Shown here in pieces: positions 35,504 through 35,812 of a DNA stretch of 42,792 nucleotides. Numbering within the stretch: position 1 is the stretch's first letter; every line of letters begins with the position of its first letter. Both the position numbers and the translations under genes were made by a program. The stretch is taken from the NCBI GenBank assembly GCA_040225955.1, contig JBECUL010000016.1:1-42792 (forward strand), given 5' to 3'. Under the pieces are notes generated by a model. It was not told the origin of the DNA. It did no database searches and saw only the letters and a list, made by a program, of their open reading frames with translations. The DNA comes from Candidatus Asgardarchaeum abyssi (GTDB taxonomy: Archaea; Asgardarchaeota; Asgardarchaeia; Asgardarchaeales; Asgardarchaeaceae).

Positions 35504-35584
35504 TGTCTTCCCTCTTATAATTGCTATTATAATAGTTAAAATCAGAATAATAACTACTATATTTAAGTTTGTTGGTTATCTGAC

Positions 35585-35680
35585 GATAACATTTGAGAAT
35601 AGGTGATATAACACAGTTTTAGCACTGGAGTTGAAGGCTCATGGCAAATCATTTATAAATCACCCATTTTCGAATGTTAC
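35585..35680. mobile_element. 96-bp MITE related to the IS at the window's left edge
   Basis: 22-bp imperfect terminal inverted repeats (18/22), flanked by the direct repeat TATCTGAC (35577-35584, 35681-35688); right end 23/25 identical to 414-438. Confidence 0.85.
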
Positions 35681-35812
35681 TATCTGACTAAATCTCTAAT
35701 TTTAACAAAAAATTTATAATTTCAAAACCCCCACTAAGACCAGCTGATTAAAATTCATGCAAATGATAAACATATCTGATGCTAATATACCTTAAATTCA
35801 GAGGTGTATATA

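Follow-up and report, generated by a model that had tools for sequence, protein, structure and literature searches.

Between the divergent ribosomal-protein genes rps15 and rps3ae of Candidatus Asgardarchaeum abyssi lies a short element (35585–35681) that is, very probably, a MITE derived from a 1341-bp insertion sequence of the same genome, most likely moved in trans and with its insertion aimed at a fixed distance before a BRE/TATA core promoter. The element is termed MITE-A here and its parent IS-A. Positions are those of the window, that is, the whole 42,792-nucleotide stretch of DNA that was analysed, which is contig C16 of an assembly of 189 contigs with 93% completeness and 7.8% estimated contamination. 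An IS/MITE pair is ordinary in itself: what makes this one unusual is the tiny unclassified transposase family to which it belongs and the fixed distance to BRE/TATA motifs. Transposition aimed at promoters has been described in yeast retrotransposons and in a few Mutator-like elements of bacteria, and the literature searched contains no archaeal report of it.

Anatomy of MITE-A in the rps15/rps3ae spacer

The spacer and its flanking genes contain the following features:

35048–35503, minus strand: rps15 (uS15) gene, with Pfam domains Ribosomal_S13_N and Ribosomal_S15
35559–35575, minus strand: BRE/TATA-like core promoter facing rps15; 6.4 bits, the only minus-strand match of at least 5 bits in the spacer
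35578–35584, unstranded: left 7-bp target-site duplication ATCTGAC, an apparent 8-mer together with 35577
35585–35681, unstranded: MITE-A, 97 bp, non-coding, with dispersed copies and IS-type ends
35585–35607, plus strand: left terminal inverted repeat of 23 nt, which differs from the IS repeat at 4 positions
35659–35681, minus strand: right terminal inverted repeat of 23 nt, which differs from the IS repeat at 3 positions
35682–35688, unstranded: right 7-bp target-site duplication ATCTGAC
35705–35721, plus strand: BRE/TATA-like core promoter facing rps3ae; 10.4 bits, the only plus-strand match
35813–36490, plus strand: rps3ae (S3Ae) gene, Pfam Ribosomal_S3Ae, E = 4e-74

The original prediction, made from the letters alone, had described a 96-bp MITE flanked by an exact 8-bp direct repeat. 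The element is real, but it measures 97 bp, and the family consensus ends in GG...CC. The octamer TATCTGAC is present as letters on both sides of MITE-A (35577–35584 and 35681–35688); the true duplication is nevertheless the 7-mer ATCTGAC, because a mutation at the terminus of the window copy makes the 8-mer appear by accident. The base concerned, 35681, is the last of MITE-A and reads T in the window, but C in the conspecific metagenome contig L052 and in the family consensus. The window copy is mutated at this base and at the second base of its left end.

Other parts of that description stand as they were given. The ends form an inverted repeat of 24 nt at 83% (35587–35610 against 35656–35679), and the resemblance to the IS at the start of the window holds at 23 of 25 positions (35656–35680 against 414–438), with only two matches in the window at three mismatches or fewer and none expected in 100 shuffles. 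The lack of coding capacity is borne out by the absence of any ORF of at least 40 aa overlapping the element. The proposed location between divergent rps15 and rps3ae promoters is equally sound: Pfam identifies the flanking genes as uS15 and S3Ae, and a core-promoter motif is found on each side. On folding, the terminal repeats of MITE-A form a hairpin (z = -3.5); an Rfam search of the locus returned no matches. An outward-reading promoter inside MITE-A or IS-A was considered and dropped, as no BRE/TATA match reaches 5 bits within the MITE or 4 bits in the IS-A end.

A dispersed family of MITEs

A search of the whole assembly retrieved nine copies at 92–100% identity to the window copy and three at 70–74%, plus isolated terminal-repeat matches, and the diverged copies number at least four. 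This is the count of copies and duplications that had been suggested as a check on the MITE reading. All copies lie at unrelated sites on different contigs. The nine close ones are 90–100% identical to each other, and two of them are 100% identical, which implies recent movement. Aligned copies span 97–100 bp and their consensus starts with GGTAAC and finishes with GTTACC. Among the nine close copies, seven are flanked by exact duplications; these measure 7 bp in four cases and 8 bp in three, and no two share a sequence. One diverged copy, on contig C46 (terminus at 15086), bears the exact IS-A repeat. MITE-A is thus short and non-coding, is bounded by terminal inverted repeats of 23–24 nt and by 7–8-bp target-site duplications that differ between loci, occurs in many dispersed copies, and carries the repeats found at either end of an autonomous IS of this genome; its earlier reading as a MITE is well founded.

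The empty site that the original prediction had hoped for in the rps15/rps3ae spacer of relatives was not found. Two conspecific metagenome contigs both carry the insertion, the relatives among the compared genomes are of the same phylum at closest and yielded no empty site, and the divergent rps15/rps3ae arrangement is absent from nearly all metagenomic relatives. A search for a paralogous empty site through shared flanks was negative and turned up another IS family instead.

The parent insertion sequence

One copy of IS-A is cut by the contig end at the start of the window, where three features are recognized:

1–439, minus strand: transposase-proximal end of an IS-A copy, cut by the contig end
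386–3: N-terminus of the IS-A transposase, 128 aa, 96% identical to the full-length 426-aa protein P0001
417–439: IS-A terminal repeat, an exact match to the family consensus

The transposase-proximal end is also found at four other contig ends. Across the assembly the 23-nt repeat appears in two IS contexts, before the transposase start or at the transposase end, each in at least five places, and the transposase frame stops at a TGA within the far repeat. Most of these repeat sites lie 75–135 bp from contig ends, as expected for a multi-copy IS that collapses in assembly; IS-A explains several of the contig breaks. Residues 129–385 of the transposase are not in this assembly, and the interior of IS-A has therefore been lost from the bin. 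Its length can be reconstructed all the same: a leader plus repeat of 53 nt, a gene of 1281 nt and a further 7 nt add up to 1341 bp, and the longest contig carrying P0001 is 1341 nt long. Two copies can be paired across contigs through their 7-bp duplications (C114 with C74, C14 with C177). IS-A is accordingly described as a 1341-bp element with at least five copies, 7-bp duplications and the MITE-A repeat at both ends. The assembly also contains IS-A derivatives with internal deletions, 134 bp (C40) and 437 bp (C34) long.

The original prediction had named three points that would tell against an IS/MITE pair, and each came out in its favour: the repeat is found at the far end of the IS too, many further copies exist in the assembly, and the spacer is not kept in relatives as an ordinary promoter element. 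The right end of MITE-A resembles the transposase-proximal end of IS-A for a few bases past the repeat, and its core is otherwise unrelated to the IS. The MITE-A repeats differ from the IS-A repeat at 2–4 of 23 positions.

A rare transposase with a DDE fold

The 426-aa IS-A transposase is laid out as a zinc-ribbon, a helix-turn-helix and a DDE (RNase H fold) domain. No Pfam transposase domain scores above threshold. The ISL3 model of NCBIfam (NF033550) reaches 36–42 bits against a cut-off of 180 and matches only 6 of 27 family members, and Pfam DDE_Tnp_ISL3 gives 16.7 bits against 23 in a single member. The IS1 model NF033558 scores 27–33 bits against a cut-off of 100, the IS256 model NF033543 weakly matches one of the 27 members, and the IS1249 match is weak; as a set, the NCBIfam matches are mutually inconsistent. 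For IS6, neither Pfam DDE_Tnp_IS240 nor the NCBIfam model matches at E <= 0.01, the sole lead being PF13610, found in 56% of the members of one neighbour cluster in the ESM Atlas. In that atlas the nearest cluster is archaeal, with Promethearchaeota as its commonest taxon.

Relatives are scarce. Among 1.84 billion representative proteins, searched exhaustively with HMMER, only 55 were found at E <= 0.001; tblastn against 72,556 plasmids yielded none, nor did a scan of genome contigs with P0001. Of 300 genomes sampled from the phylum, only 3 have even distant homologues. Closer homologues, at 67–75% identity, are found in other metagenomes. These comparisons of sequence support the view that IS-A is a rare, unclassified archaeal IS within no curated family tested, and agree with the suggestion that the pair may be undescribed: no Pfam or NCBIfam cut-off is passed.

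In a 27-member alignment D142, D199 and H222 are invariant and E373 nearly so. The second D and the E stand 174 aa apart, with a long basic insert between them. This insert, at about residues 250–335 of P0001, is highly basic, is modelled with low confidence and is absent from the classical IS1 and ISL3 layouts. The AlphaFold model (pLDDT 77.5) finds its best solved structural match in the ISCth4 transposase of the IS256 family (Z 9.9 over 225 residues), followed within 1 Z unit by the catalytic cores of retroviral integrases (about Z 9 over 125 residues). ISCth4 did not turn up when PDB sequences were searched with a profile of the IS-A transposase. The predicted structure supports an RNase H-type DDE fold; for a Mutator-like affinity the match to ISCth4 is suggestive only.

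Distant homologues (about 30% identity, 500–680 aa) end in a C-terminal WYL ligand-sensing domain, and we know of no prior description of a WYL-fused DDE transposase. Three of their genes lie in IS-like units of 1.75–1.86 kb bounded by inverted repeats (L102:881-2632, L103:1149-2989 and L104:420-2275). As these homologues, too, are found in inverted-repeat-bounded units, the group is a genuine small IS family. In the flanks of these three units, the only cases at hand, a BRE/TATA-like motif was seen once, its start about 18 nt away from the terminus.

A fixed distance to BRE/TATA promoters

The original prediction had noted that MITE-A sits in a promoter region. What it had not noted is the regularity of this position: the element stands at the standard distance of its family from the BRE/TATA motif of rps15. 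Outward flanks of family termini contain, at constant distance, a purine-rich run followed by a TATA-like run. Promoters were predicted with a 17-column motif. It was trained by expectation-maximisation on the -80 to -15 range upstream of genes, in 1578 regions free of element cores; this range was set after an earlier motif run had returned the Shine-Dalgarno and ATG signal. Three seeds, one of them without BRE information, converged on one BRE plus TATA pattern. The matrix is weak (5.4 bits) and the gene calls are crude; all promoters discussed here are predicted ones. Offsets were measured from the terminus to the first T of TATA, with the best match of at least 5 bits within 40 nt.

Twenty-five of 41 IS-A and MITE-A termini have such a match, and 16 of the 25 lie at 15–18 nt, with a mode of 17; the 16 termini come from 14 distinct elements. 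None of 20,000 resamples of 41 random intergenic flanks reached 16 at 15–18 nt, and the binomial probability conditional on a promoter match is 1.5e-9, or 4.5e-8 after correction for 30 offset windows. At most resolvable sites the cut on the promoter side falls about 10 nt upstream of TATA, which is 2–3 nt upstream of the BRE. Promoters are faced by either end of the MITE and by either end of the IS, with no orientation bias. Genes begin 29–100 nt past the targeted promoters and include rps15, an L44e-like gene, a tRNA and small ORFs. About one third of the termini have no promoter at the standard distance, and some of these are nested beside other elements. The MITE-A family can serve annotation as a marker of promoters.

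At the rps15/rps3ae site the first T of the rps15 TATA is at 35567, 17 nt from the left terminus of MITE-A (35585) and 64 nt before the rps15 ATG. The TATA of rps3ae has its first T at 35713, and 31 nt separate it from the right terminus. Before the insertion, about 42 nt lay between the two TATA boxes; MITE-A therefore entered between back-to-back core promoters and touched neither.

On the other side of the window an intron-bearing tRNA gene (507–597) lies 68 nt from the IS-A terminus, with an odd 4-base anticodon, 'gcgg', assigned by ARAGORN. The TATA-like motif of this gene is 33 nt from the IS-A end, and the window copy of IS-A is therefore not at the standard distance on that side.

A repeated element that bears a promoter has received IS-A in one of its copies (C14) and MITE-A in another (C24), at positions that differ by no more than 1 nt. 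This GC-rich repeat of about 225–245 nt exists in about 20 copies at 82–96% identity (C24:543-872, C14:44129-44372 and about 17 further ones). Each copy begins with its own BRE/TATA promoter, and the repeat is a recurrent landing site of IS-A and MITE-A. It holds no convincing ORF and has no Rfam match; it could be an ncRNA gene family or a mobile element.

Two further IS/MITE families with their own offsets

Two other families in this genome show the same behaviour, with peaks that are sharper still. The second family, whose termini end in ...GCGGAAGTACTG, is more abundant than IS-A, with at least 47 termini and MITEs of its own of about 140 bp (C14:2342-2487, C58:5532-5677 and many contig ends); 14 of its 23 promoter-adjacent termini are exactly 14 nt from TATA. 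The third family has 38 termini that begin with TGCTTTGTTGAAC, for example beside C22:210 and C119:4807, and places 15 of its 16 promoter-adjacent termini at 14 nt. The three families' offsets suggest that a common promoter feature, which may be the TBP/TFB complex or its DNA bend, lies behind them.

At two places MITE-A or IS-A termini are found 7–8 nt from third-family termini. A simple stacking model for these nested copies was rejected, as it predicts about 11 nt between the MITE-A and third-family termini against the 7–8 nt observed.

Proposed mechanism and alternatives

MITE-A very probably derives from the transposase-proximal end of IS-A and has kept only the repeats and a short core. 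The IS-A transposase would bind the 23-bp terminal repeats that begin with GGTAAC and make staggered cuts 7–8 bp apart. Insertion is very probably targeted such that the promoter-side edge of the duplicated target falls about 10 nt upstream of the first T of TATA, 2–3 nt upstream of the BRE; the terminus thus comes to rest 15–18 nt from TATA and leaves the core promoter intact. The copy in the rps15/rps3ae spacer landed between the back-to-back promoters, 17 nt from the TATA of rps15, which is the usual distance. The agent of mobilisation is most likely the IS-A transposase or a close variant of it, to judge by the shared repeats. The DDE fold and the fixed distance to promoters are shown here, as are the structure, copies, duplications and shared ends of the element; movement in trans and the way in which the promoter is recognized are inferred.

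A host origin of the spacer element, as a regulatory hairpin or promoter element of rps15 and rps3ae that never moved, would suit its place between two divergent ribosomal-protein promoters and its hairpin fold. This reading is refuted by the copy and duplication data and keeps practically no probability: the same 97–100-bp unit is found at at least 12 unrelated loci with different flanking duplications, the rps15–rps3ae arrangement is not conserved in relatives, and the MITE-A ends are IS ends. It is also unlikely, to a far lesser degree, that MITE-A was moved, now or formerly, by a different, diverged transposase of the same family and not by the resident IS-A copies. The mismatches between MITE and IS-A repeats would fit such a history, as would the homologues in other metagenomes, and the exact IS-A repeat of the diverged C46 copy suggests that several sub-lineages exist; yet a second autonomous relative is not detectable in this assembly, duplication length and promoter offset are the same for IS and MITE copies, and the two identical MITE copies imply movement that is recent. 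Derivation from IS-A, with mobilisation by its transposase or a close variant, is the reading retained below.

The offset itself admits of several explanations. Insertions might occur anywhere and be tolerated, in a compact genome, only just upstream of an intact core promoter. All the copies seen are old enough for fixation, all three conspecific sequences have the rps15 copy, and insertions into genes or core promoters would indeed be purged. Selection of this kind, however, sets a minimum distance and not a peak, whereas 16 of the 25 promoter-adjacent termini of IS-A and MITE-A cluster within 4 nt, with few further upstream. Nor does tolerance alone predict that two other families peak at one different offset. 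The landing points of IS-A and MITE-A in two copies of a repeated promoter, at most 1 nt apart, also speak against it. A single landmark used at family-specific offsets is evidence against mere tolerance of upstream insertions, which we regard as quite improbable.

What the transposase recognizes is a finer question. Direct reading of the BRE/TATA sequence, with no role for TBP/TFB or bent DNA, would accord with a landmark that is a sequence motif and with the zinc-ribbon and helix-turn-helix modules of the transposase, but three families with different ends share this landmark at offsets of 14 or 17 nt, and a shared host complex or DNA distortion accounts for this more easily; direct reading is considered somewhat unlikely. 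The preferred reading is that DNA bound or bent by TBP/TFB is captured, because three families use the same landmark at different offsets. In its full form, namely that the DDE transposases of at least three IS/MITE families use the bent core promoter with its bound TBP/TFB as a docking site and integrate upstream of BRE/TATA at an offset that is exact to the nucleotide and particular to each family, this proposal is put forward tentatively, as one possibility. If the TBP/TFB complex is the landmark, these elements would map the promoters of uncultured archaea naturally and to the nucleotide, and would offer a testable archaeal-eukaryotic link in the steering of mobile DNA to safe sites.

Comparison with known elements

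IS-derived MITEs have long been known in archaea. The SM1–SM4 elements of Sulfolobus and Saccharolobus are short, non-coding and multi-copy, have the terminal inverted repeats and duplication length of resident ISC partners, and are presumed to be moved in trans. MITE-A is like them in being short, non-coding and multi-copy and in matching a resident autonomous IS in repeats and duplication length. It differs in that IS-A falls in none of the tested families and in its fixed BRE/TATA distance, which was not found reported for SM1–SM4.

In eukaryotes, the integrase of the yeast retrotransposon Ty3 docks on TFIIIB at Pol III start sites, and Ty1 and Tf1 target promoters as well. Archaeal TBP and TFB are homologues of the TBP and TFIIB-like factors in the Ty3 target complex. 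Like these elements, IS-A and MITE-A integrate with nucleotide precision beside a promoter, which in the yeast case contains TBP and a TFIIB-like factor. Unlike these retrotransposon integrases, the IS-A transposase has a protein tether only as a hypothesis. If docking is true, it would be an archaeal counterpart of Ty3–TFIIIB targeting and of TnGBS–sigma-A targeting.

A prokaryotic parallel in position is offered by the TnGBS ICEs and by the ISLre2 and ISKra4-group IS elements, whose transposases are Mutator-like DDE enzymes and which insert 13–17 bp upstream of sigma-A promoters and leave the promoter intact (PMC3942029). IS-A resembles them in the fixed, short distance of its terminus upstream of a promoter, and the closest solved fold to its transposase, ISCth4, is also Mutator-like. 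Their landmark is a sigma-A promoter approached mostly in one orientation, whereas IS-A lies at archaeal BRE/TATA motifs with no orientation bias. ISH6 (p-MULT 2) is a small, mostly archaeal family of single-ORF elements that duplicates an AT-rich target, AANATNTT, and its preference for promoter or intergenic DNA is a speculation of the same authors (PMC3942029). IS-A belongs to a family that is likewise mostly archaeal, small and single-ORF; judged by the ISH6 target description, it differs in that the IS-A and MITE-A duplications show no AANATNTT-type consensus and lie beside the promoter motif and not within it.

With ISL3, IS1, IS256, IS1249 and IS6, IS-A shares the order zinc-ribbon, helix-turn-helix and DDE domain, a 7–8-bp duplication, GG ends and a length of about 1.3 kb; its transposase, unlike those of ISL3 and IS1, scores far below the curated cut-offs for these two. 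A full-text literature search for archaeal IS target sites near TATA boxes returned nothing relevant, and promoters go unmentioned in a 2026 survey of archaeal IS elements (PMC13343696).

Variation within the rps15/rps3ae copy

Three conspecific sequences of the site (the window, L051 and L052) show about 10 variable columns within the 97 nt of the MITE, compared with one in about 100 nt of flank. A 2-nt deletion is common to the window copy and the copy on C93 and is absent from the window copy's own alleles. The variability and the shared deletion may reflect relaxed constraint or gene conversion between copies.
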